From NCBI GenBank assembly GCA_038236135.1, contig JBBSTF010000005.1, forward strand, positions 19,227 to 83,226: a stretch of DNA of 64,000 bases, written 5' to 3'. Under the pieces are notes generated by a model, which was given only the letters and a program-made list of their open reading frames with translations, did not search any database and was not told the DNA's origin. Made by a program: the position numbers and the translations under genes. Below are positions 22,304 to 51,296 of the stretch, in pieces. Positions within the stretch are counted from its first letter, which is position 1, and each line of letters begins with the position of its first letter. The DNA is from Lysobacterales bacterium. GTDB lineage: Bacteria > Pseudomonadota > Gammaproteobacteria > Xanthomonadales > Rhodanobacteraceae.

Positions 22304-22425
22304 AAAGGTTTAAGGACATCCAACGAAGTCCAAAAAACACACCAAACCCCGCGTAGCAGCGGGGTTTTTTGTGCCTTTCTTGTTCTAGGCCGTCCAGCGC
22401 CGTCTATTGCAATCCACGCATGTTC

Positions 22426-22444
22426 GGGGGCATATTTGGGGGCA
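22426..22444 (+). repeat. Putative integrase arm-binding site (left)
   Basis: GGGGGCATATTTGGGGGCA, identical to 51210-51228. Confidence 0.75.
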
Positions 22445-22484
22445 TGCGAGGCATCTGGCCCGCCTCCCTGAAGGAAATGCCCCC

Positions 22485-29925: not shown

Positions 29926-30003
29926 GAGGCGCGACAATGTCGATATCGGATTGAGCGATTCCATTATGGAAAGGCGACCGTCGCCAAGTTAAGGCAGAAC
30001 ACC

Positions 30004-34162: not shown

Positions 34163-37100
34163 ATGACGGACCAGTTCTTTGAACGGCCCATCCTCAATTC
34201 TCCTTATGCGATCCCGTCGCAGCACTGGGAGCTGGACGGTGACGGTCAGCCGACCCAGGAGATTCTCCAGTCTCGGCGCAAAGCCGACTTCATCACTCCG
34301 ATACCCAAGCCGCGTAGGCGTACTGCCGGTCAGGCATCGCTGGTCTTCGACGAAGGCATAGGGCTTTCAACGAAGGAACAAGCCTACGCCCACACCGCCG
34401 TCATCAATGCGGTTCGTCAGGAAGTGGATGCTTGGCGTCGCCTCCCGGCAGGCCAGTGGCGGGTAACGCCGGAAACCGCTCGCCTGCTCGATCATTGGCG
34501 CAACTATCCGTTCACCGGCATCCGCCCCTTCTTCTGCCAGGTCGAAGCCGTCGAGACCGCGATCTGGCTGATTGAAGTTGCACCGCAACTGGGCAAGTCC
34601 GGTGAGCGCTTCCTTGAACATTTGGCCAAGTCGAACAACGACGCCAACCCGGAGCTGATGCGTCTGGCTCTCAAGCTGGCGACGGGCGCGGGCAAGACCA
34701 CCGTCATGGCCATGCTGATCGCTTGGCAAACCGTCAACGCCGTGCGGCATCCTAATAGCCGAAAATTCACCCGCGGCTTCCTCATCGTCGCTCCGGGTCT
34801 GACCATCAAGGATCGCCTGCGCGTCCTTCAGCCCAACGATCCCGACAGCTACTACGCCAGTCGCGACATCGTCCCGCGCGACATGCTCGCGGATATTGCG
34901 CGCGCCAAGATCGTCATCACCAACTATCACGCCTTCAAGCTGCGCGAATGCCTTGAGCTTTCCAAGGGCGGGCGCCGACTCCTTCAGGGTCGCGAAGGCG
35001 AAGAGCTGCAGACCCTGGAAACCGAAGGGCAGATGCTGCAACGGGTCATGCCCGAGTTGATGGGCATGAAGCACATCCTTGCCATCAACGATGAAGCCCA
35101 CCATTGCTATCGCGAGAAGCCGCTCGACGCCGACGATGAGCAAGACCTCAAGGGTGACGACAAGAAGGAAGCCGAAGAAAACAACGAAGCCGCGCGGCTT
35201 TGGATTTCTGGCCTTGAAGCGGTAAACCGCAAGCTCGGCATCTCCCGTGTCATGGACCTGTCGGCCACGCCGTTCTTCTTGAGCGGTTCCGGCTATGCCG
35301 AAGGCACCTTGTTCCCATGGACGATGAGCGATTTCTCGCTGATGGACGCCATAGAGTGCGGCATCGTCAAGCTGCCTCGCGTTCCGATCGCCGACAACGA
35401 TCCCAGTCGCGCCGACGAAATGCCAAAGTACCGCGAGCTTTGGAAACACATCGGCAAGAAGATGCCGAAGAAGGGGCGTGGGAAGGCCAGCCAACTCGAT
35501 CCACTCAGTATCCCCGGTTTGCTGCAGACCGCGCTCGACGCTCTGTACGGCCATTACGCGAAAACGTTCGAGCTATGGGAGAAGGCCGGCATCAAGGTGC
35601 CGCCGTGCTTCATCGTGGTGTGCAACAACACATCCACGTCCAAGCTGGTTTACGACTTCATCTCCGGCTTTCATCGCCAGAACGAGGACGGCAGCAGCCA
35701 GTTGGAAAACGGCCGCCTCGAACTGTTCCGCAACTTTGACGAACACGGCAATCCGCTGGCGCGTCCCAACACTCTGCTCATCGACAGCGAGCAATTGGAA
35801 TCCGGCGATGCGCTGGACAGTAATTTCCGCGCCATGGCCGACGACGAGATTGAGCGATTTCGCCGCGAGATCATCAAACGCACCAACGACCCCCAGCAGG
35901 CCGAGAACATTTCCGATCAGGAGCTGCTGCGCGAGGTGATGAACACGGTCGGCAAGCATGGCCGGCTCGGTGAATCGATTCGCTGCGTCGTTTCCGTATC
36001 AATGCTGACCGAAGGCTGGGACGCGAACACCGTCACCCATGTACTGGGTGTCCGCGCGTTTGGCACGCAGTTGCTGTGCGAGCAGGTTATCGGCCGCGCA
36101 TTGCGCCGGCAGTCCTACGAACTCAACGAAGAAGGCCTGTTCGACGTCGAGTACGCCGACGTGCTGGGCATTCCGTTCGACTTCACTGCCAAGCCGGTCG
36201 TGGCCGCGCCGCAAAAGCCGCGCGAGACTGTACAAGTGAAAGCCGTTCGTCCTGTGCGCGACGCGCTGGAAATCACCTTCCCGCGTGTGCAGGGCTATCG
36301 CGTCGAACTCCCGGAGGAACGGCTCACAGCGGAATTCAACGACGATTCCATCCTGGTGCTGACGCCTGATCTCGTCGGCCCGTCCGAAACCCGCAATGCC
36401 GGCATCATTGGTGAGAGCGCCGAGCTCACGTTGCAGCACCTAGGCGACATGCGCCCGTCATCAGTCGTTTTCCACCTAACCAAGCGGCTGATCGAAACCA
36501 AGTGGCGCGATCCGGGTGAACAACCCAAGCTGCACCTGTTCGGCCAGCTCAAGCGCATCGCCAAGGAATGGCTGGATACCTGCCTGCAATGCAAGGGCGG
36601 CACCTATCCGGCGCAATTGCTGTATCAGGAGCTGACCGACATCGCCTGCGAGCGCATCACCGCTGGCATCACCCGATCGCTGCTAGGCAAGCGCCCGGTG
36701 AAGGCCGTTCTTGATCCGTACAATCCGACCGGTTCTACCACAAACGTCAATTTCAACACTTCGCGCGAAGACCGCTGGGAAACGCTGGGACCGCCACCAA
36801 AATGCCACGTCAATTGGATCATCCTCGATAGCGGCTGGGAAGGTGAATTCTGCCGCGTCGCAGAAGCGCATCCCAAAGTGCTCGCGTACGTGAAGAACCA
36901 CAGTCTTGGGCTGGAAGTGCCGTATCGCTTCGGGTCCGTCGCGCGCCGCTACTTTCCCGACTTCATCGTTCGCATCGACGACGGCTACGGCCCCGATGAT
37001 CCGCTCAACCTGATCGTCGAGATCAAGGGCTATCGCCGCGAAGACGCCAAGGAAAAGAAGTCGACGATGGATACCTACTGGATACCCGGCGTCAACCATC

Positions 37101-37240
37101 TCGGCAGCCACGGTCGCTGGGCGTTCGTCGAGTTCGGCGACCTTTACGAAATGCAGGACGACTTCGCCAAAAAGGTCCAGGCCGAGTTCGACAAGATGGT
37201 TTGCGAAGCATCCACCGCCGAAAAGGAAGTTACCGCATGA
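34163..37240 (+). CDS. Type III restriction endonuclease Res subunit
   Basis: PFFCQVEA, KLATGAGKT, INDEAHHCY, DLSATPF, SMLTEGWDA, EQVIGRALRR, C-terminal PDFIV..VEIKG nuclease. Confidence 0.93.
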   Translation: MTDQFFERPILNSPYAIPSQHWELDGDGQPTQEILQSRRKADFITPIPKPRRRTAGQASLVFDEGIGLSTKEQAYAHTAVINAVRQEVDAWRRLPAGQWRVTPETARLLDHWRNYPFTGIRPFFCQVEAVETAIWLIEVAPQLGKSGERFLEHLAKSNNDANPELMRLALKLATGAGKTTVMAMLIAWQTVNAVRHPNSRKFTRGFLIVAPGLTIKDRLRVLQPNDPDSYYASRDIVPRDMLADIARAKIVITNYHAFKLRECLELSKGGRRLLQGREGEELQTLETEGQMLQRVMPELMGMKHILAINDEAHHCYREKPLDADDEQDLKGDDKKEAEENNEAARLWISGLEAVNRKLGISRVMDLSATPFFLSGSGYAEGTLFPWTMSDFSLMDAIECGIVKLPRVPIADNDPSRADEMPKYRELWKHIGKKMPKKGRGKASQLDPLSIPGLLQTALDALYGHYAKTFELWEKAGIKVPPCFIVVCNNTSTSKLVYDFISGFHRQNEDGSSQLENGRLELFRNFDEHGNPLARPNTLLIDSEQLESGDALDSNFRAMADDEIERFRREIIKRTNDPQQAENISDQELLREVMNTVGKHGRLGESIRCVVSVSMLTEGWDANTVTHVLGVRAFGTQLLCEQVIGRALRRQSYELNEEGLFDVEYADVLGIPFDFTAKPVVAAPQKPRETVQVKAVRPVRDALEITFPRVQGYRVELPEERLTAEFNDDSILVLTPDLVGPSETRNAGIIGESAELTLQHLGDMRPSSVVFHLTKRLIETKWRDPGEQPKLHLFGQLKRIAKEWLDTCLQCKGGTYPAQLLYQELTDIACERITAGITRSLLGKRPVKAVLDPYNPTGSTTNVNFNTSREDRWETLGPPPKCHVNWIILDSGWEGEFCRVAEAHPKVLAYVKNHSLGLEVPYRFGSVARRYFPDFIVRIDDGYGPDDPLNLIVEIKGYRREDAKEKKSTMDTYWIPGVNHLGSHGRWAFVEFGDLYEMQDDFAKKVQAEFDKMVCEASTAEKEVTA

Positions 37241-37390
37241 AAACGGAACGGATCCAGTCCTTCACTAGCACCTTTGCAGCCCACGCCGTTTTCGATCCTT
37301 TTGTTGACGTTAACAAAACCATCGGGATGCCTAAGGGCGTTCGTGGCTTTACGGACCATTTTCCCGGCGTCAGGAAAATGGTCGCTAAGA
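37237..37390 (+). pseudogene. Internally deleted dinD-like remnant
   Basis: MKTERIQSFTSTFAAHA joined directly to DPFVDVNKTIGMPKG and DHFPGVRKMV, which resemble separated DinD segments. ATGA overlap with res. Confidence 0.6.
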
Positions 37391-37480
37391 TCCGAAAAAC
37401 CGTTGATGAATCATGCGTTTGCAACGCAATTGCGTTGAAACTAGAAGCCACGGCGTCGAGCACCAACATTAGCGACACTA

Positions 37481-37509
37481 TTGAAACGGCACTCAACCCG
37501 CGCTACTGT
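37481..37509 (+). promoter_or_regulatory. Sigma70 promoter upstream of the structured RNA and NYN gene
   Basis: TTGAAA (37481-37486), 17-nt spacer, TACTGT (37504-37509). The -10 lies in the palindrome TACTG-TTTG-CAGTA (37504-37517). Confidence 0.7.
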
Positions 37510-37511
37510 TT

Positions 37512-37590
37512 GCAGTACATCCGCCCCTTGGCAGTACGCCCGCTCGATCATCCTGAGCGCTGGCCGACCCCTCGGGGCTTTCTTTTTTCT
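37512..37590 (+). ncRNA. Candidate structured RNA/leader ending in a terminator-like U tract
   Basis: CCCC(37524-27)/GGGG(37574-77), TTGGC(37528-32)/GCCGA(37563-67), CGCTC(37541-45)/GAGCG(37555-59), then CTTTCTTTTTT. GCAGTAC is repeated at 37512 and 37531. Confidence 0.55.
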
Positions 37591-37634
37591 GGCACCACAG
37601 ATTCTTTTGCGAAGCGCTCCGCTCGGAGACTCGC

Positions 37635-38510
37635 ATGAGCCATCGCCGCATCGCCATCCTCATCGACGGCGGGTTTTTCCTGAAGCGGCTGCCTCGATTG
37701 GTCAACCCGGAGCTATGCGAAACGCCCGAAGGCATTGCAGCCTACGTTCGACATCTGTGCCGCAACCACGTCAAGCATCTCACCGGATGCAGCAACACCG
37801 ACTGGGCGCAGTACGTCTACCGCATCTTCTACTACGACGCGGTTCCCTATGACGGCAAGGCACATAACCCGATCGACAATCGCTCGATCGACTTTGGAAA
37901 ATCCGATGTCGCCGTCCAACGACTCGCATTGTTCGACTGTCTCCGCCGCCAGCGCAAAGTCGCCTTGCGTCTCGGCAAGGTAAACCGGGACCACGACTGG
38001 GCGATCAAGCCGGAACTGACGAAGCTGCTCCTGCGTAGTCGCTCGGCACTCGATGTGCTCGACCGATTGACGCCCGGCGGCGGAGAAGAAACCAAGGGCG
38101 CAAGCCAGGATGCCATGTCAATGCAACTTTCGGCGGACGAGCTGCGCAGCCTTCGGGAGTTTCGCGCCATTTGGCAGCAGCTGGACCGTTCCTCCGTACA
38201 GCTGGGCCTTCGTCAAAAAGGCGTCGACATGCGAATTGGTGTCGACATCGCGTCACTCGCACTCAAGAAACAGGCCGACACGCTGATCTTGGTAGCGGGT
38301 GACAGCGATTTCGTACCGGCGGCCAAGCTGGCGCGCCGGGAAGGCATCGATTTCATCCTCGATCCACTATGGCAACACATCAACGCCGACCTGTTCGAGC
38401 ACATCGATGGCCTGCATTCGGGTATCCCCAAGCGTGCCGAACAACGTGCCGAACAACGTGCCGCCACCGCAGGCAATGGCCACCTCGCCGCCCAGATAAA
38501 GACGGAATAA
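37635..38510 (+). CDS. NYN (LabA/DUF88, PIN-fold) ribonuclease
   Basis: AILIDGGFF, YRIFYYDA, QKGVDMRIGVDI, LVAGDSDFVPAAKLARREG; acidic catalytic residues intact; GGAGA RBS. Confidence 0.92.
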   Translation: MSHRRIAILIDGGFFLKRLPRLVNPELCETPEGIAAYVRHLCRNHVKHLTGCSNTDWAQYVYRIFYYDAVPYDGKAHNPIDNRSIDFGKSDVAVQRLALFDCLRRQRKVALRLGKVNRDHDWAIKPELTKLLLRSRSALDVLDRLTPGGGEETKGASQDAMSMQLSADELRSLREFRAIWQQLDRSSVQLGLRQKGVDMRIGVDIASLALKKQADTLILVAGDSDFVPAAKLARREGIDFILDPLWQHINADLFEHIDGLHSGIPKRAEQRAEQRAATAGNGHLAAQIKTE

Positions 38511-38514
38511 TTCA

Positions 38515-41385
38515 ATGGCCAAGAAGCCAACCACCCCCAAAACCATCGCCGCGCTCAACCATGCCGAGGCGAAGCGCAAGAACATTCCCACGGTGGAACA
38601 CCAGTCGGTGATGCAGAAGGCTGACCAGGCGCCGGTGAAGGTGGCGTATGCGCGTAGCGCGCAGGGGCTGGATGACGAGAAGCAGCAGCGCAATCGCGAC
38701 CTCGACCCGCAACTGGTCTGGCGCGGCAAGGACCAGCAGGACTGGTCTGACCTGGTTGTCAACGCGCCGCCGCTCTACATCCAGGAAAAGGTGAAGCCCA
38801 AGTTCCTGATCGACGACCTGCTTCGACAGTCGAAGAAGCACCCGTCTACGGGTTCGGCGAAAGAAGACGCGGCAGGCTACAACCAACCTGACATGTTCGG
38901 CGACTTCAACGGCCTGCCTGAAGGTGCCGACAAAACCGAGTTCTACCAGCACGAGGGCCACTGGCAGAACCGCATGATCCTGGGTGATTCACTACAGGTG
39001 ATGGCCAGCCTGGCCGAGCGCGAAGGCCTGCGCGGGCAGGTGCAATGCATTTACTTCGATCCGCCCTACGGCATCAAATTCAACTCCAACTTCCAGTGGT
39101 CCACCACCAGCCGTGACGTGAAGGACGGCAACGCCGACCACATCACCCGCGAGCCGGAACAGGTCAAGGCGTTCCGCGACACCTGGCGCGACGGCATCCA
39201 TTCCTACCTGACCTACCTGCGCGATCGCTTGACCGTGGCACGCGACCTGTTGACCGAGTCCGGCTCGATATTTGTGCAGATTGGCGATGAGAACGTGCAC
39301 CGGGTGCGGGCGGTTTTGGACGAGGTATTTGGTGATGCGAATTTTGCTGCACAAATTGCTTTCATTAAGACTGCTGCTGTCAATAGTCCTCAAGCTAGAA
39401 CGAATGTAATTGGCGATACCTTCGACTACGTTCTTTGGTATGCAAAAGACCTATCAAGGGCAAAATATCGGCAACCTCTTCGGTCAAAAGTGCTCGGGGG
39501 TAACAGCGAATACAAGAGGATTGAGCTTGCGAATGGTAGCCGGCGTCCTTTGTCGGCGAGGGAGGTGGGTGGCGGAGAGCAGGAGGCCGATTCTAACGTG
39601 CGCTTTTACCGGCAAGACAATATTGTCTCCACCGGATTTTCGGAATCGCTGTCGGTCCCATTTCAAGCTTTCGGAAATTCCTATCGCCCAAACGCTAGTT
39701 CTCATTGGAAGACGACGATTCGCGGCATGGAACGCTTACGTCGTGCCTCCCGCCTTGAACCGCGAGGCAAACAACTTTCGTACGTGCGATTTTTTCATGA
39801 TTTCGCTGTCACGCCGATCGGCAACTCTTGGGACGATGTGGTTCTTAGCAGTCGCGCCGAGGACAAAGTCTATGTAGTTCAGACCAGCTCGAAAGTCGTC
39901 CAGCGCTGTATTTTGATGGCCACCGATCCCGGCGATCTCGTGCTCGACCCGACCTGCGGCTCCGGCACTACCGCCTACGTGGCAGAACAATGGGGCCGCC
40001 GCTGGATCACCCTCGACACGTCACGCGTAGCACTCGCCTTGGCCCGCGCACGCATCATGGGCGCGCGCTATCCGTACTACCTGCTCGCCGACTCGGCTGA
40101 AGGCCAGCGCAAGGAAGCCGAAGTCACCCGCAGCGTTCCCTCGTCGAAGGCTACCTACGGCAACATCGCCCACGGGTTCGTCTACGAGCGTGTGCCGCAC
40201 ATTACGCTGAAGTCGATCGCCAACAACACCGAGATCGACGTGATTTGGGACAAGTTCCAGCAGACGCTGGAGCCGTTGCGCGAGCAGATGAATAGTGCAC
40301 TCGGCAAGACGTGGGAAGAGTGGGAAATTCCCCGAGAGGCCGATGCCAAGTGGCCGGGGGAAGCTACTCGACTGCACGCCGACTGGTGGCAGCAGCGCAT
40401 CGCGCGGCAGAAAGAAATCGACGCTTCCATCGCCGCCAAAGCCGATTCCGAATACCTCTACGACAAACCCTACGACGACAAAAAGAAGGTTCGCGTCGCC
40501 GGCCCGTTCACGGTTGAAAGCCTTTCGCCGCATCGCGTGCTGGGCGTCGACGAGAACGACGAACTGATCGATGGGGTGGGCGAAGACAAGGCCGGCTATT
40601 CCGACGAACGCGATTTCGTGCAGATGATCCTGGCCACGCTGAAGGTGTCGGGCGTACAGCAGGCGCACAAGGAAGACCGCATCGAGTTCACCGCGCTCAC
40701 ACCGTGGCCGGGCGATCTGGTCTGCGCCGAAGGGCGATATCTCGAAGGCGACAAGGAACGCCACGCCGCTATCTTCATCGGCCCCGAGTTCGGCACTGTC
40801 TCCCGCGTCGACCTGGTAGCCGCCGCGCGCGAGGCCGGCGATGCCGACTTCGACGTGCTGATCACCTGCGCCTTCAACTACGACGCCATGTCATCTGAGT
40901 TCGACAAGCTCGGCCGCATCCCGGTGCTTAAGTCGCGCATGAACGCCGACCTGCACATGGCCGAAGACTTGAAGAACACCGGCAAGGGCAACCTGTTCGT
41001 GATCTTCGGGGAACCCGACATTGACATCCTCGACGCCGGCCCCGACGGCTACAGCGGGCAGGTTCGCGTGAAGGTCAACGGCGTCGACGTGTTCCACCCC
41101 AACACCGGCGAAGTACGCAGCGACGGTGCCGACGGGATCGCCTGCTGGTTCATCGACACTGACTACAACGAAGAATCGTTCTTCGTCCGCCACGCCTACT
41201 TCCTCGGCGCCAACGACCCGTACAAGGCACTCAAGACCACCCTGAAGGCCGAGATCAACGAAGAAGCCTGGGCCACCCTAAACAGCGACACCTCCCGCCC
41301 CTTCGACAAACCCACCAGCGGCCGCATCGCCGTCAAGGTGATCAACCACCTCGGCGACGAGGTGATGAAGGTGTTCCGCATTTAG
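38515..41385 (+). CDS. Type III R-M modification methyltransferase Mod
   Basis: YFDPPYG, VLDPTCGSGTT (beta-class order); lower-GC target-recognition segment at ~39330-39900. Confidence 0.93.
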   Translation: MAKKPTTPKTIAALNHAEAKRKNIPTVEHQSVMQKADQAPVKVAYARSAQGLDDEKQQRNRDLDPQLVWRGKDQQDWSDLVVNAPPLYIQEKVKPKFLIDDLLRQSKKHPSTGSAKEDAAGYNQPDMFGDFNGLPEGADKTEFYQHEGHWQNRMILGDSLQVMASLAEREGLRGQVQCIYFDPPYGIKFNSNFQWSTTSRDVKDGNADHITREPEQVKAFRDTWRDGIHSYLTYLRDRLTVARDLLTESGSIFVQIGDENVHRVRAVLDEVFGDANFAAQIAFIKTAAVNSPQARTNVIGDTFDYVLWYAKDLSRAKYRQPLRSKVLGGNSEYKRIELANGSRRPLSAREVGGGEQEADSNVRFYRQDNIVSTGFSESLSVPFQAFGNSYRPNASSHWKTTIRGMERLRRASRLEPRGKQLSYVRFFHDFAVTPIGNSWDDVVLSSRAEDKVYVVQTSSKVVQRCILMATDPGDLVLDPTCGSGTTAYVAEQWGRRWITLDTSRVALALARARIMGARYPYYLLADSAEGQRKEAEVTRSVPSSKATYGNIAHGFVYERVPHITLKSIANNTEIDVIWDKFQQTLEPLREQMNSALGKTWEEWEIPREADAKWPGEATRLHADWWQQRIARQKEIDASIAAKADSEYLYDKPYDDKKKVRVAGPFTVESLSPHRVLGVDENDELIDGVGEDKAGYSDERDFVQMILATLKVSGVQQAHKEDRIEFTALTPWPGDLVCAEGRYLEGDKERHAAIFIGPEFGTVSRVDLVAAAREAGDADFDVLITCAFNYDAMSSEFDKLGRIPVLKSRMNADLHMAEDLKNTGKGNLFVIFGEPDIDILDAGPDGYSGQVRVKVNGVDVFHPNTGEVRSDGADGIACWFIDTDYNEESFFVRHAYFLGANDPYKALKTTLKAEINEEAWATLNSDTSRPFDKPTSGRIAVKVINHLGDEVMKVFRI
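41341..41378 (+). repeat. mod 3'-end segment, copy 1
   Basis: ATCAACCACCTCGGCGACGAGGTGATGAAGGTGTTCCG; 37/38 identical to 46548-46585. Confidence 0.95.
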
Positions 41386-41405
41386 CTCACTGAAGGTTCT
41401 CTGAA

Positions 41406-43196
41406 ATGAAGATCACCCCAACCTCGCTTACGCTCAACCAGTTGTTTGGTTCATCGAACGAACAGTATGTGATCCCGTCGTACCAGCGACGCTATTCTTG
41501 GAGAGAGCGTCAGGTTTATGAGTTGCTGGACGACATCGACCTACTCGAAGGCTCGGATACCCACCTACTGGGAAACATCGTTTGTCTAACAGGAAGTCAC
41601 GCTGCAGGACTGAACAAGCTTGACCTCGTCGATGGTCAGCAGCGTCTTACCACGATATCTATTCTGTTCGAATGCATCCGCCAGCATCTAATGGAACAAG
41701 AGAACACTGAACTTGCCTCCGACCTTGGTCGATTGCTGCACGCAAAAACTATTGATGGAAAAGAGCTGCCTAAGGTTTTGTTAGATTCGATTGATTCAAA
41801 AGAATTTGCGCGTTTGGTGAAAGCCGACGATCAAGGGGATTTTGTCAACGAGAATCTATTTAACGCATTTACAATAGTACGCGATTGGATAAGTGAGCAA
41901 GAGCTGAAAGATTTAATAGAGTTCCTCTACCGACTTCAGAATCAGGCGTTGCTAATTCGTCTTGACGTAAGTGATGCGAAGGACGCGTTCAAATTGTTTG
42001 AGACAATCAACAATCGTGGTCTGCGGTTGAGTCCCAGCGATATAATAAAGAACTTTTTACTCGGAAATGCTGCTAGATTCGGTGAGGATTCGCTGAAAGA
42101 CGCGTGTGACGCTTGGGCGAAACTGGTGCTGCACCTTGATAGAACTAGCTCGGACAACTTTTTTAGACATTTTCTTACTGCGCGCACTCAACGGCGTGTA
42201 ACCGCAGCGAAAGTCGTGCCAATCTTCAAGGCGCTTTTCATGCGTGAGGTGCGCGAAGCCGTCGACCTTCCGGATAGACATTACTATTTTGACGAAGACG
42301 ATGTCGATACCGACAACGATGAGAACGATGGCGAGACTTCTCTCGATCGAGAGTCAAGTGAAGAAGAGAAGTCTGAACACCCCCAGTTAAGCTTCAAGTC
42401 ATTTCTGAAAAAGCTTGTCGAGAGCGCGAAAATCTATGGACGGCTACTCCTGGCCAGCACTGGAAATAAGTCCGCAGACAGACATTTGCGAAACCTGCAT
42501 ATGATCAAGGCAGCTCAAACCTTTGGCTATTTGATGCATTTAAAGGTCGGAGGGTGTGACGAAAAGCACTTCCTTACCATTTTGAAGTTGACCGAAGCGT
42601 TCGTACTCCGGCGTCATATTTGCCGCGAGCGCAGCAACGACACAGAGACGTTGTTCGCGAGACTCTGTGCCGTCAATCCGAAGAATCCAGTTCCCGATAC
42701 AAGAGTCGCTTACCGGGCATCTTGTCCTTCAGATGAAAAATTCCGCGAAGAATTCGCAAATGTCATGTTTACCTCAAATATTATTGATCGCGCGCGGTAC
42801 TGTTTGGAATCGATCGAGATAGCGAAGCATGGTAAATATGTTGAACTCCAGGTTCTCGGCACAGATCTAGTACATGTCGAACACATTATTCCTAAGAAGA
42901 TTAAGACGATAAAGGCGAAGGAGGAGTTCGGGGATTGGGTGACCTATTTAGGAGAGAAATCTATCCTCCATCATCCAAAATATTTGTCACGCATAGGGAA
43001 CTTGACGCTATTCTCTGGAAAGCTAAATATTAGTGCTTCAAATAATCCTTTTAGCGGAAAGCGACCAGCCTATCGAGAGTCATCAATATTGATGACGCAG
43101 GAGATAGGGAAAATGCAGAATTTCCGTTTCAAGCAAGTCGAACAAAGATCCAAAGACCTTGCTGATTCGGCGGTAGAGCTATGGCCAGTGCCTTGA
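41406..43196 (+). CDS. DUF262 + DUF1524 protein (GmrSD-type modification-dependent restriction)
   Basis: IPSYQRRYSW, VDGQQRLTT, FETINNRGLRL; C-terminal VEHIIP..IGNLTL..N. Visibly AT-rich. Confidence 0.9.
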   Translation: MKITPTSLTLNQLFGSSNEQYVIPSYQRRYSWRERQVYELLDDIDLLEGSDTHLLGNIVCLTGSHAAGLNKLDLVDGQQRLTTISILFECIRQHLMEQENTELASDLGRLLHAKTIDGKELPKVLLDSIDSKEFARLVKADDQGDFVNENLFNAFTIVRDWISEQELKDLIEFLYRLQNQALLIRLDVSDAKDAFKLFETINNRGLRLSPSDIIKNFLLGNAARFGEDSLKDACDAWAKLVLHLDRTSSDNFFRHFLTARTQRRVTAAKVVPIFKALFMREVREAVDLPDRHYYFDEDDVDTDNDENDGETSLDRESSEEEKSEHPQLSFKSFLKKLVESAKIYGRLLLASTGNKSADRHLRNLHMIKAAQTFGYLMHLKVGGCDEKHFLTILKLTEAFVLRRHICRERSNDTETLFARLCAVNPKNPVPDTRVAYRASCPSDEKFREEFANVMFTSNIIDRARYCLESIEIAKHGKYVELQVLGTDLVHVEHIIPKKIKTIKAKEEFGDWVTYLGEKSILHHPKYLSRIGNLTLFSGKLNISASNNPFSGKRPAYRESSILMTQEIGKMQNFRFKQVEQRSKDLADSAVELWPVP

Positions 43197-43243
43197 CGGT
43201 CGATGTCGCTGATCGGCGATGAGGTGATGATGATGTCTGAGAA

Positions 43244-44368
43244 GTGCAAAATTCCGTGAACAACTTGCTCGCCGCGATAGTGGCAGACTGGAGTCTGGTT
43301 GCCTGGTTCGTTGGCCTTGCGTCGACCATCGCGGTCTTGGTGATGGCGTACAGGGAGCGTCGACCGCGTCAGAGATTGAAAGCGCCGCTCGTGCTTCCTG
43401 CGCCGACAACCAAGCCTTCGGCAATGAAGCCCGTAGCAAAGCCGGTGGAAATGCTCGAACGCAAGTACATCGCGGCGGAATATGAGCGGCGGAAGCGGTC
43501 GTACGAAGTGAACCTCCAGCGTGTTCAAGATCGGATTTTCCAACTAGATGCACGACGGCTGGAGACAGCGCTTCCCGAGGATGTACTGGCTTCGGCCTCA
43601 CCCCAAGAGCTGGAAAGCTTGGCCGTAGTTCTGGGCTTGGCCTCCACGGCTTCGGCGGCTGAGGTTGTACGTTCACTGCGGGCGGCCGGCAGTAACGACA
43701 CCGCGGTCCAGATACGAAAGATGAAAGGGGATGAACCCTTCGTTTCCTATCGAGAAGTCGTGTCGGATGCAGCGAAGAAGACCAAAGCCAAAATTGCTTC
43801 CACCGATAACACGGCGGCGGAGCGAGAACGGGCGATCGTCGTGGCGGTGTTCAATACGATGCTCGACAAGGCAACGCCTGAGCAACGTGCCGCCCTGATC
43901 CGAGAACTTAGCAAGCGCGAACACAAGCTGGCACAAGGGGTTGGCGTGGCAGCGAGCGGCTTGGTGATAGCCAATCTGTCGGGTTTTGGGTTGTATGTGG
44001 CCGCATCCAGCGCTCTCGCGGCACTCACCGGGGCGTTGGGTATCACTTTGCCGTTCGCCGCCTACACCGGCTTGAGCTCAGTCATCGCGACCGTGATCGG
44101 GCCTGTTGGCTGGGTAGTGCTCATCATCGGCGGGGTAGCCATGATCGGCGGGGTCAACTACAAAAAAACAGTCCCGGCCGTTTTGGCCATCGCTGCGGTT
44201 CGCGCGCGCCTCATCGCCGAGCGCGACCATGAAATCGGCGAACTTGTCGCCGAACAGAAGGGTCACCTGACCGATGTAGCGGCCCATTTGCAGGCGCTAC
44301 GCGCGCTTCTCGATCGCATGGCTGCGGGCGGAATCGACAAGGTGCCAAAGGGCGACGTACCGCTCTAG
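43244..44368 (+). CDS. Membrane-anchored YaaW/UPF0174-like protein
   Basis: N-terminal TM segment, coiled coil, then SYREVV.DAAKK.K..., Gly/Ala-rich hairpin, GPVGW, NYKKTVPAVLAIA..R. Confidence 0.65.
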   Translation: MQNSVNNLLAAIVADWSLVAWFVGLASTIAVLVMAYRERRPRQRLKAPLVLPAPTTKPSAMKPVAKPVEMLERKYIAAEYERRKRSYEVNLQRVQDRIFQLDARRLETALPEDVLASASPQELESLAVVLGLASTASAAEVVRSLRAAGSNDTAVQIRKMKGDEPFVSYREVVSDAAKKTKAKIASTDNTAAERERAIVVAVFNTMLDKATPEQRAALIRELSKREHKLAQGVGVAASGLVIANLSGFGLYVAASSALAALTGALGITLPFAAYTGLSSVIATVIGPVGWVVLIIGGVAMIGGVNYKKTVPAVLAIAAVRARLIAERDHEIGELVAEQKGHLTDVAAHLQALRALLDRMAAGGIDKVPKGDVPL

Positions 44369-44390
44369 CTTCAAGCTTCAGGGGAATGAC

Positions 44391-45092
44391 GTGGAGGAAA
44401 AAACGATCATTTGTTTGGCGAAGTCACGCAAGCACCGTGGATCGTGCGTCGCGGGTCGACAACTTGAGGACGGCGGAATCGGCGGCTGGGTAAGGCCGGT
44501 CAGTCCATCCCGTGGTGAGGGGTTGAGACCTGGGCAGATGACCTGTAGTGATGGTTCTGAAGTCGAGCTGTTGGACATCGTCAGCATTCCCCTACTACGT
44601 GCAGTGCCGGCTGGCTATCAGAGCGAAAATTACCTTGTGGACGTGGGGGCCCGGTGGAATCGAGTGGGACGGGCGCCTTGGACGATGCTGCTTGAAGCTG
44701 CCGACGTTTATGACGACGCGTTCTGGCATGACTATGGGAACACCTTTCATGGTGTGCGGGACCGCGTACCGGAATCCGAAACCGCTACCCTCAAACGGTC
44801 ACTGCAAATGATTTCTGTCCCGCGCTTGCGGATCGTGGTGAGTTCAGAACGGCAGTACATGTCCCTGATTCCAAGGCGGAAGATCCGCGCAGAATTCATC
44901 TATGAAGGCGCACGTTTTCGATTGGCGGTTACGGACCCTGTCGTTGAAAAGAAATGCCTTTCGCAAAAAGACAGACACTACCAAGTTGAGACGGCAATGC
45001 TTTGCGTTAGCGTGGGCGAACCGTTCAAAGGCGCCGCGTATCGGCTGGTCGCCGCGGTGATTACGCCCCGTCGGTGTGAGGTGCGGACGTGA
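44391..45092 (+). CDS. Dual-OB-fold-like protein
   Basis: IICLAKSRKHRGSCVAG..GWVRPV..LLDIV.IP..QSENY; RKIRAEF.Y....LAVTDP; CVSVGEPF..YRLVAAVI. Confidence 0.7.
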   Translation: MEEKTIICLAKSRKHRGSCVAGRQLEDGGIGGWVRPVSPSRGEGLRPGQMTCSDGSEVELLDIVSIPLLRAVPAGYQSENYLVDVGARWNRVGRAPWTMLLEAADVYDDAFWHDYGNTFHGVRDRVPESETATLKRSLQMISVPRLRIVVSSERQYMSLIPRRKIRAEFIYEGARFRLAVTDPVVEKKCLSQKDRHYQVETAMLCVSVGEPFKGAAYRLVAAVITPRRCEVRT

Positions 45093-45715
45093 GCGTGCAG
45101 ATTTTCAGTGTTGGACATTCGAACTACAACGTCGAGACGTTCATTTCGATCCTTAAGGCCAACAAGATTACGGCAATTGCCGATGTCCGTTCAGCACCGT
45201 TCAGTCGGTTCAATCCTCAGTTCAACAAACACGAGATCAAGAAGTCCCTTGCGTCCAACGGGATTCGATACGTGTTCCTTGGCGCGGAGCTTGGCGCGAG
45301 GAGCAGCGATCCATCTTGCTACGTCGATGGAAAGGTGCAGTACGACCGCCTAGCCAAGACCCTGGAGTTCGCTGCCGGCATCGCGCGCGTGATGGATGGC
45401 GCGAAGACCCACCGCGTCGCACTCATGTGTGCGGAAAAAGAGCCGCTGGATTGCCACCGTACGATCTTGGTCGCTCGTGAGCTTGTTGATAGAGGAGTTG
45501 AGGTGGGGCACATACTCGCTGACGCGAGTGTAGAGCCGCATGAGCAAACGATAGCGCGGCTGTTGGACATGTTGGGCATGTCTGCGCACGACATGTTTCG
45601 CACGCCCGAACAAATTGTGGATGATGCTTACAGGCAACAAGGCATCCGTATCGCGTATCAGGAAAGCACTACCGGTGCGACTGCGGGTGACGGCGAAACT
45701 GGAGAGGTCGAATGA
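45089..45715 (+). CDS. DUF488 family protein A
   Basis: IFSVGHSN, ADVRSAPFSR, LGAELGAR, ALMCAEKEPLDCHR; GTGA overlap. Confidence 0.9.
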   Translation: MSVQIFSVGHSNYNVETFISILKANKITAIADVRSAPFSRFNPQFNKHEIKKSLASNGIRYVFLGAELGARSSDPSCYVDGKVQYDRLAKTLEFAAGIARVMDGAKTHRVALMCAEKEPLDCHRTILVARELVDRGVEVGHILADASVEPHEQTIARLLDMLGMSAHDMFRTPEQIVDDAYRQQGIRIAYQESTTGATAGDGETGEVE

Positions 45716-46143
45716 AGCTGTTCACCATAGGCTTCACCAAATCGTCGGCGGAGAACTTCTTTCGAAGGATCAAATCTTCGGGCGCAACCAAGATTGTCGA
45801 TGTCCGGTTGAACAACGTGTCCCAACTGGCGGGCTTCGCCAAACGGGACGATTTGAAATACTTTGCCCGCGAGCTGTGTGGCGCGGACTACCAGCACATC
45901 CCGGACCTCGCGCCGACAAAGCCGATGCTGGATGCCTACAAGATGAAGCAATGCGATTGGTCCAGCTACGAAAAGCAATTTCTAGGACTTATGGCCCAGC
46001 GGCACATTGAGCGCATGGAGCGCCCCCTCGTGGATGGCGCATGCCTTTTGTGCAGCGAGGACAAGCCGCATCATTGCCACAGACGGCTCGTTGCCGAGTA
46101 TCTTCAAGAGCATTGGGGTGATGTCGAGATTGTTCACCTCTAG
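45712..46143 (+). CDS. DUF488 family protein B
   Basis: LFTIGFTK, VDVRLNNVSQLAGFAK, LAPT, CLLCSEDKPHHCHRRLVAEYL; ATGA overlap. Confidence 0.9.
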   Translation: MKLFTIGFTKSSAENFFRRIKSSGATKIVDVRLNNVSQLAGFAKRDDLKYFARELCGADYQHIPDLAPTKPMLDAYKMKQCDWSSYEKQFLGLMAQRHIERMERPLVDGACLLCSEDKPHHCHRRLVAEYLQEHWGDVEIVHL

Positions 46144-46200
46144 TGTTGATGACGGTGACTGACATACTTGGTGAAATCGAACCTACGGGGGAAGACACGC

Positions 46201-46365
46201 ATGGCTAAGGTGATAGGACTTGTTGTGGCACTCGCTGTGTTTGGGATATGGATGAGTATCGTCGGCAATCCACATGTTGTTGAGACAGTGATTGGGCTCG
46301 TCCTGGCCATCATTGCTGGCGTGTGGGCGTATCGGGTCTGTCGTCGACTCGGTTCACGCCGTTGA
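46201..46365 (+). CDS. Small two-TM membrane protein (54 aa)
   Basis: MAKVIGLVVALAVFGIWMSIVGNPHVVETVIGLVLAIIAGVWAYRVCRRLGSRR; GGGGGAAG RBS. Confidence 0.55.
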   Translation: MAKVIGLVVALAVFGIWMSIVGNPHVVETVIGLVLAIIAGVWAYRVCRRLGSRR

Positions 46366-46424
46366 GAAGTCGCTGGTGAGGTTTCCCGGATCGTATTGAT
46401 TCTGAACGAGCTGGCAGGTAGAGC

Positions 46425-46514
46425 GTGGAGTTTGGCTTCGCCGAGACGTACACGGACACGCTTGCCCGGCTGGCGCGCGACGAGCAGGAGTTGGCAGAGA
46501 CGGCCACGTCGTAA
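46425..46514 (+). pseudogene. 5' remnant of a second RelE-like/UvrD helicase gene
   Basis: VEFGFAETYTDTLARLARDEQELAETATS* aligns without gaps to MEFRIADTFTDSLVRLTGDEQKSVKTTAF (48286): 13/29 identical by my count. Confidence 0.75.
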
Positions 46515-46544
46515 CAGCACAGCAGGGGCTCGTTTGGAGTTGAA

Positions 46545-46592
46545 GTCATCAACCACCTCGGCAACGAGGTGATGAAGGTGTTCCGAGTTTGA
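46545..46592 (+). pseudogene. 3' remnant of a second mod gene
   Basis: Encodes VINHLGNEVMKVFRV* versus VINHLGDEVMKVFRI* of mod. Its TGA overlaps the ATG of the next gene (TGATG). Confidence 0.9.
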
Positions 46593-47365
46593 TGTCTAAT
46601 GGCGCTATGAACGACACGTCGCTGAAACTTCTGCACCCGCCGATAGTCGAAGCCGTTCTGGATATCGACTGCATCATGCGTTCGGATTTCGAGTTGGGCG
46701 CGGCTGAAACTGCTGCTCGGGACGCGTACCGCGATGGTTACCCTGTGTTTCAATCCCGCCGTTTGACGGAACACGTGTTTGAGCAACCGCAAGGCGCGGA
46801 CGCCAAATTCTCCATCAGAGAAGGTCTTCAGGCCTACCAGTTCGTCGCGCAAGACACGAAGCAGTTGGTGCAAGTTCGTACGCAGGGCTACTCGTTCAAC
46901 CGACTTGCGCCGTACGAAGGTTTGGATAGTTATCTACCTGAGATCAAGCGTACGTGGCTTCTGTTTGTCGACGTCACCAAACCTCTGCAAGTCCGGGCTT
47001 TGCGGCTTCGGTTCATCAACAGGATTCTTTTGCCAGCGGAAGATGGACAGGTCAAACTCGAAACCTATCTCAAGATCGGGCCACGTTTGCCGGATGAGGA
47101 CCGCATGGGCTTGGAGGGCTTCATGGCAAGGAACGCAGCTTTCGACAAGGAGACGGGCGTGAGAGTTGTCACACTCATGGCATCGCAGCCTGTGGAAAAT
47201 GATCAGCTTCCGGTAATCTTGGATATCGAGGTCACAGATGACAGCATTGTCGCGCCCGACAACTGGGAGGTTATTGCCAAGCGTGTCGAAGTGCTGAGAG
47301 AACTGAAGAATCGCGTTTTCAAAGGAACGTTGGAGGAAGAATGTCTAGCCATGTTTCAGTCATGA
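46592..47365 (+). CDS. TIGR04255-family protein
   Basis: LHPPIVEAVLDI, LVQVRTQGYSFNRL.PY, LRLRFINRI, VILDIEV, LRELKNRVF. Confidence 0.8.
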   Translation: MSNGAMNDTSLKLLHPPIVEAVLDIDCIMRSDFELGAAETAARDAYRDGYPVFQSRRLTEHVFEQPQGADAKFSIREGLQAYQFVAQDTKQLVQVRTQGYSFNRLAPYEGLDSYLPEIKRTWLLFVDVTKPLQVRALRLRFINRILLPAEDGQVKLETYLKIGPRLPDEDRMGLEGFMARNAAFDKETGVRVVTLMASQPVENDQLPVILDIEVTDDSIVAPDNWEVIAKRVEVLRELKNRVFKGTLEEECLAMFQS

Positions 47366-47880
47366 CGCTTGCGATTGGATGTGCGACAGCAGCCGTTGGC
47401 AATTGGGCGGACAGTGGCATTTCTTCAGAGGCAGTGTTTCTGCGGGAATCCATGCAGAAGGTCGCACGGAGCACAGAACTATCGCAAGCGTTGTTTGGCC
47501 TCAAGGCGAGCGTAATTGAGCGCATCCATGCGCTGCGCGATGACTGCAACGAGCAGGGTTGGGACGGCTATGAAGCGTTGCCGATGTCCAAAGATGCGGT
47601 ATGTCGTGCCGAAGCATTCATGCGTGCGTTGCCGACGAATCTACCAATGCCCGAGTTGACTGCCGAGACCGATGGTTCGATCGCATTGGAATGGGGCACG
47701 TCGCCGGTTCGGTCGCTTTCATTGAGCATCGGGACGAGCGATCGCCTCCCATACGCGTGGATCGATGGTGTGGAACGCGGACACGCCGTCGCCGGATTTG
47801 ACGGCGCAGTGATCTCGCCTCAGTTGCTTGGGATGATCAAGGGAGTCGCCGAACGTGGCGCTACCGTCAGGGCTGGCTGA
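47362..47880 (+). CDS. Hypothetical protein, partner of TIGR04255
   Basis: GWDGYEALP..A..F..ALP..P...ETDGSIALEW; ATGA overlap with the upstream gene. Confidence 0.75.
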   Translation: MTLAIGCATAAVGNWADSGISSEAVFLRESMQKVARSTELSQALFGLKASVIERIHALRDDCNEQGWDGYEALPMSKDAVCRAEAFMRALPTNLPMPELTAETDGSIALEWGTSPVRSLSLSIGTSDRLPYAWIDGVERGHAVAGFDGAVISPQLLGMIKGVAERGATVRAG

Positions 47881-48271
47881 AGTTGTCCAAGGTGAAGAGT
47901 ATGTCGCCCGGTTTCTGTTCTCTTCGAACTCGTACAACGCTGCTGGGGTGAAGTGGACAGCATTTGACCCCAACCCGGTCAACGGCGAAACGTCGGTATT
48001 CCGCTCGCCATCCGAAATTCCTGAATCGCTCTGGGATGCCGGCAGGGAACTCTCGCGTGGGCGAGTGAACAGCCTGCATGGTGCCGCTCTCCTACAAGCC
48101 GAATCGGTGTTCGACGCTGGACTTCGCATTGTGCCAAGCGAACCTCCTGCCGCGCACGCCAACATCAACGGCTGGCCCGTGTCAGCGAATGATCCGGCGA
48201 TGCAGAAAGCTCGGCGCATCGAACTTGCAAAACTGCTGGCCCAGCGCGCGACGCTTGTCGTGACTCCCTGA
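47855..48271 (+). CDS. Small hypothetical protein, possible ADP-ribosyltransferase/RES-like fold
   Basis: EYVARFL, AFDP..ETSVFR, HANINGWP; GTG start with AAGGGAG RBS; overlaps the upstream gene. Confidence 0.65.
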   Translation: MALPSGLAEVVQGEEYVARFLFSSNSYNAAGVKWTAFDPNPVNGETSVFRSPSEIPESLWDAGRELSRGRVNSLHGAALLQAESVFDAGLRIVPSEPPAAHANINGWPVSANDPAMQKARRIELAKLLAQRATLVVTP

Positions 48272-48285
48272 GAGGGACGGCGATC

Positions 48286-50364
48286 ATGGAGTTCCGCATT
48301 GCCGACACTTTCACCGACAGCTTGGTAAGGCTGACCGGCGACGAGCAGAAGTCGGTGAAGACCACGGCGTTCGACCTGCAGATCAATCCTGCGAACCCAG
48401 GCATGCAGTTGCACAAGCTGGATCGAGCCAAAGACCAGAACTTCTGGTCAGTGCGGGTAAGCCGTGATATCCGCCTGATCGTGCACAAGACTGCGGCCAG
48501 CCTTTTGCTCTGTTACGTCGATCACCATGACGACGCGTACGCCTGGGCCGAGCGTCGGAAGCTGGAAACCCACCCGAAAACCGGCGCTGCGCAGTTGGTG
48601 GAGATTCGGGAGCGCGTAGAGGAAATCGCAATTCCGGTCTATGTGCAGGCCACGCTACCGGGTCTTGAGAAGCCGTTGCTGTTCACCGACTACAGCAATG
48701 ACCAGTTGCTGGGTTATGGGGTGCCGGTCGAATGGTTGAACGACGTCAAGGCAGCCAATGAAGACAGTCTGCTGGAGATCGCCGAGCACCTTCCTGCCGA
48801 GGCTGCCGAGGCGCTGTTGGAACTGGCTACGGGTGGAACGCCTGCGGTAACCGTCGCAGCGCCAAAGGGTGTCGACCCGTTCGAGCATCCCGATGCGCAG
48901 CGCCGCTTCCGCACGATGACCGATGTCGAGGAATTGCAACGCGCGCTGGAATTTCCGTGGGAGAAGTGGACGATCTTCCTGCACCCGGCGCAGCGACAGT
49001 GGGTAGAGCGCGACTACAGCGGACCAGCTCGCGTTTCGGGTTCCGCCGGCACCGGAAAGACTATCGTCGCGCTGCATCGCGCCGTGCACCTCGCAAAGAG
49101 CAACCCGGATGCTCGCGTGTTGCTAAGCACGTTTTCCAGGAACTTGGCGAACGCCCTGCGGACCAAATTGTTTCGGCTGGTTTCGAACCAGCCCACGCTG
49201 GCCGAACGCATCGATGTCGACACGATGGATGCCGTTGGCGTGCGACTCTACGAAAGGCAGTTCGGGAAACCGCAGATCGCGTCCCGCGACGAGATTGCAA
49301 CGCTGCTGAATCACGCGGCCGCAAATGTGGACGGGTTGAAGTTCAGTCCCGGCTTCCTGCTAGCCGAATGGCAGGAGGTAGTCGATCCGTGGCAGATAGA
49401 TAGTTGGGAGGAGTATCGCGATGTTCGCCGCCTCGGCCGCAAGACGCGCCTGCCTGAAGCCCAGCGTGCCTTGTTGTGGCAGGTGTTCGATACGGTGCGC
49501 GAGGCGCTACGAGCCAAAGGCAAGACCACCGTGGCGGCAATATTCACCAAACTCTGCGGAGCGATGCGCGAGAGAAAGCGGCCGCCGTACGATTTCGTAA
49601 TAGTCGACGAGGCGCAGGACATTGGTGTCGCTCAGTTGCGCTTCCTGTCCGCGCTGGGTGGAAGCGAGTCCAACGCCCTGTTTTTTGCGGGTGACTTGGG
49701 TCAGCGCATCTTCGAGCAACCATTTTCGTGGAAGTCGCAAGGCGTCGACATACGAGGTCGCTCGCGCACGCTGCACATCAACTACCGCACCTCGCATCAG
49801 ATTCGAGCGCAGGCAGATCGCCTGCTGGACCCGGAGGTTTCTGACGTTGACGGCAATGTTGAGACTCGCGCTGGCACGGTCTCGGTATTCAACGGTGAGC
49901 CACCCGTGATACGCAACTTCGCGACCCCCGAGTTGGAGTCTCAGGCCGTCGGAAGCTGGCTAGCCAAGTTGATGGAAGCGGGTATCCCCCCAAGTGAAGT
50001 GGGTGTGTTCGTACGATCGGACAACGAGATTCCGCGCGCGCTTGCGGCGGTATCGACAGCCGGCTTTCCGGCCAGGGTCTTTAGCGAGCGGACATCCGGT
50101 GAAGAAATTGGTGTCTGCGTATCCACCATGCACATGGCGAAAGGCATGGAGTTCCGCGTGGTTGCCGTCATGGCCTGCGACGACGAGGTGCTGCCACTGC
50201 AAGCACGCATCGAATCGGTCACTGACGAGTCCGAACTTGCCGAGGTGTATGCAACGGAGCGGCACCTGCTTTACGTGGCCTGCACCCGCGCCCGCGATCA
50301 CCTACACATTTCAGCCGTGGCACCAGCTTCGGAATTTCTTGACGACTTGGTCGCGACACGTTGA
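48286..50364 (+). CDS. SF1 (UvrD-like) helicase with N-terminal RelE/ParE-like domain
   Basis: N-terminal LHKL..FWSVRVSRDIRLIV; GSAGTGKT, IVDEAQD, GDLGQRI, NYRT, AKGMEF, LYVACTRAR. Confidence 0.88.
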   Translation: MEFRIADTFTDSLVRLTGDEQKSVKTTAFDLQINPANPGMQLHKLDRAKDQNFWSVRVSRDIRLIVHKTAASLLLCYVDHHDDAYAWAERRKLETHPKTGAAQLVEIRERVEEIAIPVYVQATLPGLEKPLLFTDYSNDQLLGYGVPVEWLNDVKAANEDSLLEIAEHLPAEAAEALLELATGGTPAVTVAAPKGVDPFEHPDAQRRFRTMTDVEELQRALEFPWEKWTIFLHPAQRQWVERDYSGPARVSGSAGTGKTIVALHRAVHLAKSNPDARVLLSTFSRNLANALRTKLFRLVSNQPTLAERIDVDTMDAVGVRLYERQFGKPQIASRDEIATLLNHAAANVDGLKFSPGFLLAEWQEVVDPWQIDSWEEYRDVRRLGRKTRLPEAQRALLWQVFDTVREALRAKGKTTVAAIFTKLCGAMRERKRPPYDFVIVDEAQDIGVAQLRFLSALGGSESNALFFAGDLGQRIFEQPFSWKSQGVDIRGRSRTLHINYRTSHQIRAQADRLLDPEVSDVDGNVETRAGTVSVFNGEPPVIRNFATPELESQAVGSWLAKLMEAGIPPSEVGVFVRSDNEIPRALAAVSTAGFPARVFSERTSGEEIGVCVSTMHMAKGMEFRVVAVMACDDEVLPLQARIESVTDESELAEVYATERHLLYVACTRARDHLHISAVAPASEFLDDLVATR

Positions 50365-51277: not shown

Positions 51278-51296
51278 CCCCTCTTGGGCACCAATC
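51278..51296 (+). repeat. attR core
   Basis: CCCCTCTTGGGCACCAATC, a duplicate of the tRNA-Leu 3' end. Confidence 0.95.

Follow-up and report, generated by a model that had tools for sequence, protein, structure and literature searches.

Defence genes embedded within multi-gene defence operons, such as Hma, BREX, DISARM and type I restriction-modification (RM) systems, have been described under the term "guilt-by-embedding" (Payne et al., bioRxiv 10.1101/2024.01.29.577857), and the origin of the embedding was left open in that study. Defence hotspots are also known from mobile elements and tRNA islands, including the P4/P2 hotspots and the leuX hotspot 37 of E. coli (PMC12707154). The present work concerns a stretch of 64,000 nucleotides (nt) from a Lysobacterales bacterium (contig JBBSTF010000005.1, positions 19,227 to 83,226), the whole of which is referred to as the window. 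It contains a three-gene type III-like operon of res, mod and a UvrD-type helicase gene, with 6.9 kb of cargo in a slot between mod and the helicase gene. There are probably three or more anti-phage cassettes in this slot, which were acquired independently and share the orientation of the operon; their stacking is attributed, with a probability of roughly 0.75, to recombination between scaffold copies with different cargo.

The scaffold genes, the cassettes and the vestigial gene ends in the slot are as follows.

34163-37240, + strand: res, BPTD_3080-family restriction endonuclease, scaffold gene 1 (NCBIfam NF046055, 1371 bits; Pfam ResIII)
38515-41385, + strand: mod, full-length type III-like N6/N4 DNA methyltransferase of 956 aa, left anchor of the slot (Pfam, PADLOC)
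41341-41378, + strand: conserved 3' tract of the resident mod, which codes for INHLGDEVMKVF
41406-43196, + strand: cassette 1, a GmrSD-type type IV (modified-DNA) restriction enzyme (Pfam GmrSD_N and GmrSD_C; PADLOC HEC-06)
43213-43236, + strand: third copy of the mod end, short, reading IGDEVMM and identical to 41351-41374 at 21 of 24 positions
43244-46143, + strand: cassette 2, a module of a JukA-like gene and PDC-M45 A/B/C (PADLOC)
46425-46514, + strand: vestigial helicase 5' end, decayed, 29 codons, VEFGFAETYTDTLARLARDEQELAETATS and a stop (profile search)
46521-46592, + strand: vestigial mod 3' end, 22 codons, SRGSFGVEVINHLGNEVMKVFRV and a stop (profile search)
46592-48271, + strand: cassette 3, a TIGR04255-family gene with two uncharacterised partners (the TIGR04255 trio)
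48286-50364, + strand: UvrD-type helicase, full length, right anchor of the slot (Pfam UvrD-helicase and UvrD_C; residues 1-692 align to relatives)

The variability of the mod-helicase interval was assessed in 80 loci, taken from one genome per species, and in 80 independent metagenome loci, which gives 160 loci. The loci of the first sample span Proteobacteria, Acidobacteriota, Verrucomicrobiota, Nitrospirota, Cyanobacteria, Armatimonadota and others. The order res-mod-helicase forms a conserved framework in both samples, with res kept upstream of mod in nearly all loci. Both anchors of the slot are present in 97 loci, the window included; the slot is empty in 22 of them, with a mod-helicase gap of 2-17 bp, and 75 hold 0.16-6.9 kb, the window slot being the largest. 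Where the slot is empty, the helicase is translationally abutted to mod. The empty form is also carried by the conjugative Pseudomonas avellanae plasmid p1NCPPB4222, on which mod and helicase overlap.

In the first sample, the 41 occupied slots hold 83 cargo open reading frames (ORFs), nearly all on the + strand, which fall into 64 sequence clusters. The commonest cargo families are associated with defence and comprise HEC-01A/AriA/PtuA/GajA-like ABC ATPases, SIR2, HerA, HamA, STAND NTPases, DUF4411 paired with Peptidase_M78, and subtilase paired with an AAA ATPase. No recombinase family is among the commonest cargo families of the loci. As in embedded defence described before, the inserted genes lie between the genes of one system, are varied and co-oriented, and include known or candidate defences. 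These results support the claim of an earlier reading of the window from its letters (the original prediction) that the mod-helicase interval is a variable defence slot.

Cassettes that are single in some loci, which are given here by their numbers, recur in stacks in others. L050 and L060 contain the cluster pair c1-c2 by itself, and L014 has it in a stack; the pair c5-c6 is single in L073 and stacked in L048, and the cluster c3 is single in L005 and L037 and stacked in L032. A search for loci with one type of cargo, which had been proposed together with the original prediction, recovered the cassettes of the window as well. A GmrSD homologue (54% identical) is the sole slot cargo in L123, the JukA-like gene is single in L026, and the TIGR04255 trio is the sole slot cargo in L042, L112, L128 and L167. 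The trio follows directly after mod in these four loci and in L081 and L084, and in L081 it comes first and is followed by three other genes. The module of JukA-like, DuOB, DUF488 and DUF488 genes was found in L086 (4550-7222), with the helicase start 64 nt further on. L084 (3813-10321) is a degraded system: an ISAZ013-type transposase interrupts mod, and of the helicase only the first 39 and the last 88 residues are left, while the TIGR04255 trio is intact.

The seam between cassettes 2 and 3 consists of vestigial ends of both anchor genes, the helicase start lying ahead of the mod end. The elements listed in the original prediction, in which a first cargo, a helicase 5' remnant, a mod 3' copy and a second cargo follow each other between mod and the helicase, were all recovered, at the positions given there, by family searches and a repeat search. 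Two hidden Markov models (HMMs) were built, one from the C-terminal 40 residues of 80 mods of the family and one from the N-terminal 60 residues of 47 of its helicases, and were searched against the six frames of 1.58 Mb (51,160 fragments). The helicase remnant matches positions 1-27 of the helicase N-terminal HMM (26 bits, E = 1.3e-5), and the homology to the helicase N-terminus on which the prediction had staked itself is thereby borne out; the mod remnant matches positions 19-40 of the mod C-terminal HMM (41 bits, E = 4.6e-10).

At the DNA level, the repeat search found a direct repeat at 41313-41383 and 46520-46590. Its core, 41341-41378 and 46548-46585, is identical at 37 of 38 positions, as had been predicted, and the longest exact runs within it are 15 and 22 nt. 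The helicase remnant is identical to 48286-48375 at 58 of 90 nt, the longest stretch of exact identity being 11 nt. From all family members it is more distant than these are from each other; it is old and decayed. The stop codon of the mod remnant overlaps an ATG (TGATG, 46590-46594). This overlap had been noticed correctly; its interpretation as the start of the next gene may need correction, as the alignment of homologues indicates that the true start of the TIGR04255-family gene may be the ATG at 46607.

The third mod-end copy lies in the 47-nt gap between the GmrSD gene and the JukA-like gene. When the 21-mer GGCGACGAGGTGATGAAGGTG was searched with up to 3 mismatches, the 64 kb of the window gave three matches, each of them on the + strand and within the slot, against 0.00 expected from shuffled sequences. 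In L026, the JukA-like gene begins 4 nt past the mod stop, which indicates that the copy at 43213-43236 is the leftover of such a junction. The third copy thus points to at least three cassettes in the slot, each with a mod end before it. The stacking of cassettes claimed in the original prediction therefore stands, and its count of two is raised to at least three.

The identity of 37 of 38 positions in the core is not in itself evidence of a recent duplication, because the mods of family members from other phyla match the window tract at a mean of 32.5 of 38 positions and one Acidobacteriota locus matches it at 38 of 38. Its use as proof of a recent duplication was accordingly rejected, since unrelated family members reach 37-38 of 38. 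The mod terminus is invariant in protein, and its DNA is similar even between phyla. The seam is a mosaic, in which the diverged helicase remnant stands beside a near-identical 38-nt mod tract; the tract is intact, whereas the 28 nt upstream of it and the helicase remnant are decayed. The mosaic may be due to gene conversion that acted on the 38-nt tract, or to selection of this tract as the translation-initiation region of the next gene.

In the case of selection, the 38-nt mod tail would have been kept as the translation-initiation or coupling region of the first gene of cassette 3, which is compatible with stacking by recombination. The survival of the tract next to decayed sequence agrees with this explanation, as do its TGATG end, which overlaps a possible start and has a counterpart in the mod remnant of L048, and the native mod stop of L081, which overlaps the TIGR04255 start as ATGA. 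However, the sole difference from the resident core is non-synonymous and lies at an invariant Asp, with zero synonymous differences, which speaks for gene conversion or identity by descent and against selection. In addition, the likely TIGR04255 start at 46607 lies 15 nt past the stop, and the other copy at 43213-43236 has decayed. Preservation of the tail by selection is considered unlikely.

A hairpin, CACCTCG-GCGA-CGAGGTG, with a perfect 7-bp stem and a 4-nt loop, is present in the mod tail at 41347-41364 and 46554-46571, where it pairs an anti-Shine-Dalgarno-like with a Shine-Dalgarno-like sequence. As a regulatory element it was set aside; its Leu codon varies freely across the family, so that the hairpin probably arises as a mere consequence of the invariant peptide HLGDEV. 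No promoter or terminator above shuffle expectation was found between the cassettes, and none at the seam, and the cassettes are probably co-transcribed with the operon. Four minus-strand ORFs across the seams and one + strand ORF across the seam gave no family match.

Scars of the same kind are found in other loci. Mismatch-tolerant peptide searches over the six frames of 1.58 Mb recovered four extra copies of the mod C-terminal peptide beyond the 80 true ends, all four in the slot and on the + strand, and nine extra copies of the helicase N-terminal peptide, eight of them in the slot. Mod 3' remnants are present in L007, L028, L048, L051, L102, L147 and L155, and extra helicase 5' copies lie upstream of the intact helicase in L048, L054, L132 and L151. 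The remnants cover 8 to ~209 codons of mod and 8-71 codons of the helicase, each being anchored at the cargo-facing end. In L155, a 54-codon mod remnant lies immediately ahead of a TIGR04255-like trio. L048 contains a second helicase-start/mod-end seam in the same order as the window, namely a cassette, a helicase start (MDFRIADT), a mod end (CDEVFKVFRV and a stop, running into TGATG), a second cassette and the helicase. A metagenome scan for the combined seam (helicase start, 105-135 nt, mod end) gave 0 matches, its pattern being probably too strict.

The origin of the remnants was judged from their resemblance to the anchor genes of their own and other loci. The mod of the same locus is the best match in five of eight remnant cases (L007, L028, L051, L147 and L155), with 0 of 159 other mods equal or better, and the helicase remnant of L054 matches its own helicase best, with no other equal or better. 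The 42-nt mod tail of the window is matched as well by 2 of 159 other mods, which places the resident gene in the top 2%. As the remnants usually match the resident genes best, the donors would be close relatives with different cargo, or local duplicates (homogenised), and not distant alleles. The original prediction had spoken of two alleles concatenated in the slot; the joining of units with different cargo is upheld by the single-cassette loci and the seam of L048, and distant alleles as donors are not, the remnants being mostly resident-like.

Under stacking by recombination between scaffold copies, which is the simplest route, a first crossover would be homologous and fall within the long conserved scaffold genes, and a second would be an illegitimate or short-homology join near the cargo boundary. 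A join within the mod end would leave a mod remnant, a join within the helicase start would leave a helicase remnant, and a join in the intergenic spacer would leave none, as may have been the case in L014, L032 and L081. In natural transformation, a process of this kind is known as homology-facilitated illegitimate recombination.

The same architecture could have arisen from tandem complete res-mod-cargo-helicase systems, if a deletion that began in the early part of the first helicase and ended in the late part of the second mod took out the superfluous bodies of helicase, res and mod and left terminal fragments beside the cargo. A direct intermediate for this route is provided by L029 (12672-14415), in which a fusion of residues 1-160 of the helicase with residues 971-1016 of res precedes the mod 5' start; this locus looks like two systems in tandem with an internal deletion. 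The continuum of remnant lengths and the resemblance of the remnants to the resident genes are consistent with it as well. However, most remnants are 8-30 codons long, and random deletion ends in genes of 2-3 kb are unlikely to give such lengths without selection or repeated trimming. The window slot contains no res or mod 5' remnant, and the formation of a tandem array is an extra, unobserved step. Tandem systems followed by deletion are hence regarded as a possible route, on the unlikely side.

Several points weigh against stacking by recombination between scaffold copies as proposed here. The stacked loci L014, L032 and L081 are without scars, which shows that scars are not an obligatory product of stacking. 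The helicase remnant of the window is not resident-like (54 of 81 nt; 22 of 96 other loci match it at least as well), and the mosaic seam is unexplained by a single recent event followed by uniform decay. No relative with a mod more than 78% identical was present in the databases searched, the nearest matches being 78% identical for mod, 56% for the TIGR04255 protein and 51% for DuOB; as the locus has no close relative, the ancestral single-cassette states of the window lineage were not observed. The mechanism is inferred from end-products alone. The recombination route would be either one-sided homologous exchange or tandem systems with deletion; both yield the window architecture, and there is no choice between them for the window locus.

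The original prediction also compared the slot with an integron. In the strongest form of this comparison, the mod 3' end would be an attachment site, at which site-specific or efficient RecA recombination routinely adds and removes cassettes as circles. A mod-end copy precedes each cassette of the window (41341-41378, 43213-43236 and 46548-46585), other loci also contain cassettes that lie between direct repeats of one anchor, and a near-identical tract without synonymous differences fits an ongoing exchange between copies. On the other hand, no recombinase was found in 34163-50364 by family scans, and the sole integrase is the P4-type enzyme of the surrounding island (22407-23717), 16 kb away. 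In folding, the seam (46366-46600) is no more stable than its shuffled versions (z = -1.13 for the + strand and -1.16 for the - strand), and it has no attC-like structure, no inverted repeat was found at the boundaries, and no Rfam family matched in 41000-48600. The remnant boundaries vary by locus, and most stacked loci are without repeats.

Conservation of the mod end across the family as a recombination site was also considered and dropped. Among 77 mod genes, the synonymous conservation of the terminal tract at invariant residues is average (rank 272 of 446 runs). The synonymous sites of the mod end are thus no more conserved than those of the rest of the gene, and there is accordingly no family-wide constraint at the DNA level, such as a site would impose. 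The longest exact identity between the window copies is 22 nt, a length that does not exceed the minimum usually required for efficient recombination by RecA. The attachment-site explanation is very improbable, and the integron analogy of the original prediction was not borne out.

Loss of the 5.2-kb block 41341-46548 would leave an intact mod and the TIGR04255 trio, which is the state of L042 and L112. Such a loop-out between the 38-bp repeats is possible in principle and looks weak; it should be rare, because the exact identity extends over 15 and 22 nt only. A related reading treats the last ~13 mod codons and the first ~30 helicase codons as portable homology arms, which would make the operon a recombinase-free platform for cassette capture. 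If this were true, units of mod end, cargo and helicase start would circulate in populations, insert by short-homology recombination and be lost again via their own repeats, and the three-gene system would be a phylum-crossing integron analogue for defence genes. This reading is speculative and decidedly doubtful.

Recombination between scaffold copies thus being preferred, the cargo brought together in the window slot consists of the following genes, in addition to the GmrSD gene given above.

43244-44368, + strand: JukA-like protein of 374 aa (PADLOC JukA, E = 1.5e-24), without a Pfam match
44391-45092, + strand: DuOB (dual OB), PDC-M45 A (PADLOC, E = 4.2e-75)
45089-45715, + strand: DUF488, PDC-M45 B (PADLOC, E = 3.2e-89)
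45712-46143, + strand: DUF488-N3a, PDC-M45 C (PADLOC, E = 1.3e-73)
46168-46365, + strand: putative ORF for a small hydrophobic protein with two helices, the last of cassette 2 (ORF list; weak sub-threshold NCBIfam matches)
46592 or 46607 to 47365, + strand: TIGR04255-family protein (NCBIfam TIGR04255, E = 6.8e-26)
47341-47880 and 47855-48271, + strand: the two TIGR04255 partner proteins, without a family match

Each cassette is presumably an active defence. The guanine-plus-cytosine content of the GmrSD gene is 46%, against ~60% in the flanking genes, and it is the least ameliorated cassette and the nearest to mod; its low value suggests that it is the most recently acquired or the most foreign one. 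In cassette 2, the components A, B and C of PDC-M45 are encoded by consecutive genes. The JukA match is limited to residues 151-328, the C-terminal half of the protein, and JukB was unmatched among the proteins scanned. As the JukA-like gene and PDC-M45 A/B/C also form a four-gene module in another genome (L086), PDC-M45 may have a fourth component. The TIGR04255 trio, found immediately behind this mod in many genomes that are unrelated, is a candidate defence system by embedding; its two partner proteins have no Pfam or PADLOC model.

The scaffold genes have the following properties. The res protein consists of a ResIII helicase part and a putative C-terminal endonuclease part, for which Pfam ResIII is above its cut-off and RE_endonuc, with 17.1 bits, is below its cut-off of 23.4. 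The mod protein matches Pfam N6_N4_Mtase (E = 1.2e-31) and, over residues 7-956, PADLOC MTase_III PDLC03632 (1535 bits), and it has thousands of homologues at 64-78% identity in many phyla. The helicase begins with a highly conserved domain of ~90 aa (48286-48560), within which residues 27-81 show a weak match to HigB/RelE-like toxins (E = 0.003). The helicase homologue on the plasmid is annotated as "3'-5' exonuclease" by PGAP.

The interval between res and mod (37241-38514 in the window) is a second variable slot, the length of which lies between 13 bp and 3.6 kb among 76 loci. In the window it is occupied by one assigned gene, preceded by ~390 nt without an assigned gene.

37635-38510, + strand: NYN-domain gene in the res-mod gap (Pfam NYN)

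This NYN gene recurs at the same position in L024, L032 and L130. Remnants of the res 3' end and the mod 5' end were sought in this slot of the window, and none were found.

The whole system lies in an integrative island, whose features are as follows.

22285-51296: integrative island of ~29 kb at tRNA-Leu(GAG), bounded by 19-bp direct repeats
22216-22300: tRNA-Leu gene
22407-23717: P4-type integrase of the island
25849-27789: DUF927 protein
29659-32154: NERD/SEC-C protein

The exact 19-bp repeat CCCCTCTTGGGCACCAATC is present at 22285-22303 and 51278-51296, where 0.00 are expected by chance. As is typical of an island integrated at a tRNA gene, a tyrosine integrase adjoins the tRNA gene, and the 3' end of the tRNA is repeated at the far boundary.

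The literature on the res-mod-helicase scaffold, BPTD_3080, TIGR04255 and DuOB/DUF488 was searched in this context, and nothing relevant was found. The empty, single, stacked and scarred end-products of this slot make the origin of embedded cargo testable, and the widespread res-mod-helicase operon is an added scaffold for guilt-by-embedding mining. The candidate defences to which it points are the TIGR04255 trio and the four-gene module of the JukA-like gene and PDC-M45.

Compared with known systems, the operon shares with type III RM of the EcoP15I type a Mod of the N6/N4 type that matches MTase_III, and its Res, with a helicase core and a putative C-terminal endonuclease domain, may resemble that of this type. 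It differs in the order res then mod, in place of the two-gene mod-res operon of type III systems, whose ATP-dependent cleavage takes place at unmethylated sites in inverse orientation, and in a third conserved gene, the UvrD-type helicase with its RelE-like N-terminus. The Mod is also about 300 aa longer than classical type III Mod proteins. Similarly to an integron, co-oriented and promoter-less-looking cassettes stand in tandem downstream of a fixed gene with a repeated boundary element; unlike an integron, the window has neither an IntI recombinase nor attC hairpins, and its boundary repeats are pseudogene fragments of variable length. In the orphan toxin/immunity arrays downstream of cdiA and rhs, every displaced module has ahead of it a short piece of the conserved gene that lies upstream. 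The window shares with these arrays a tandem arrangement formed by recombination in a conserved part. In cdiA and rhs, however, the remnant comes from the very gene that exchanges its variable tip, whereas in the window the conserved genes are intact, whole gene cassettes are stacked, and remnants are derived from both flanks.

As in the defence hotspots of mobile elements and tRNA islands, the window system resides in an integrase-bearing tRNA-Leu island, and its content is replaced between relatives. The slot of the window lies, however, inside an operon, between two genes of one system and not between core genes of an element, and it moves with the operon across phyla and onto plasmids. With embedded defence, the window shares variable cargo between conserved operon genes, much of it known or candidate defence, and the HEC-06 GmrSD-like and PDC-M45 proteins of the window match models from the study of Payne et al. 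It differs in that the host is a type III-like BPTD_3080 res/mod/UvrD-helicase operon, which is outside the analysis of that study, and in that the cassette boundaries bear vestigial copies of the flanking genes, which point to the way in which the stacking arose. The phenomenon of embedded defence is known; what is new here is the host scaffold, together with its unusually legible scars.

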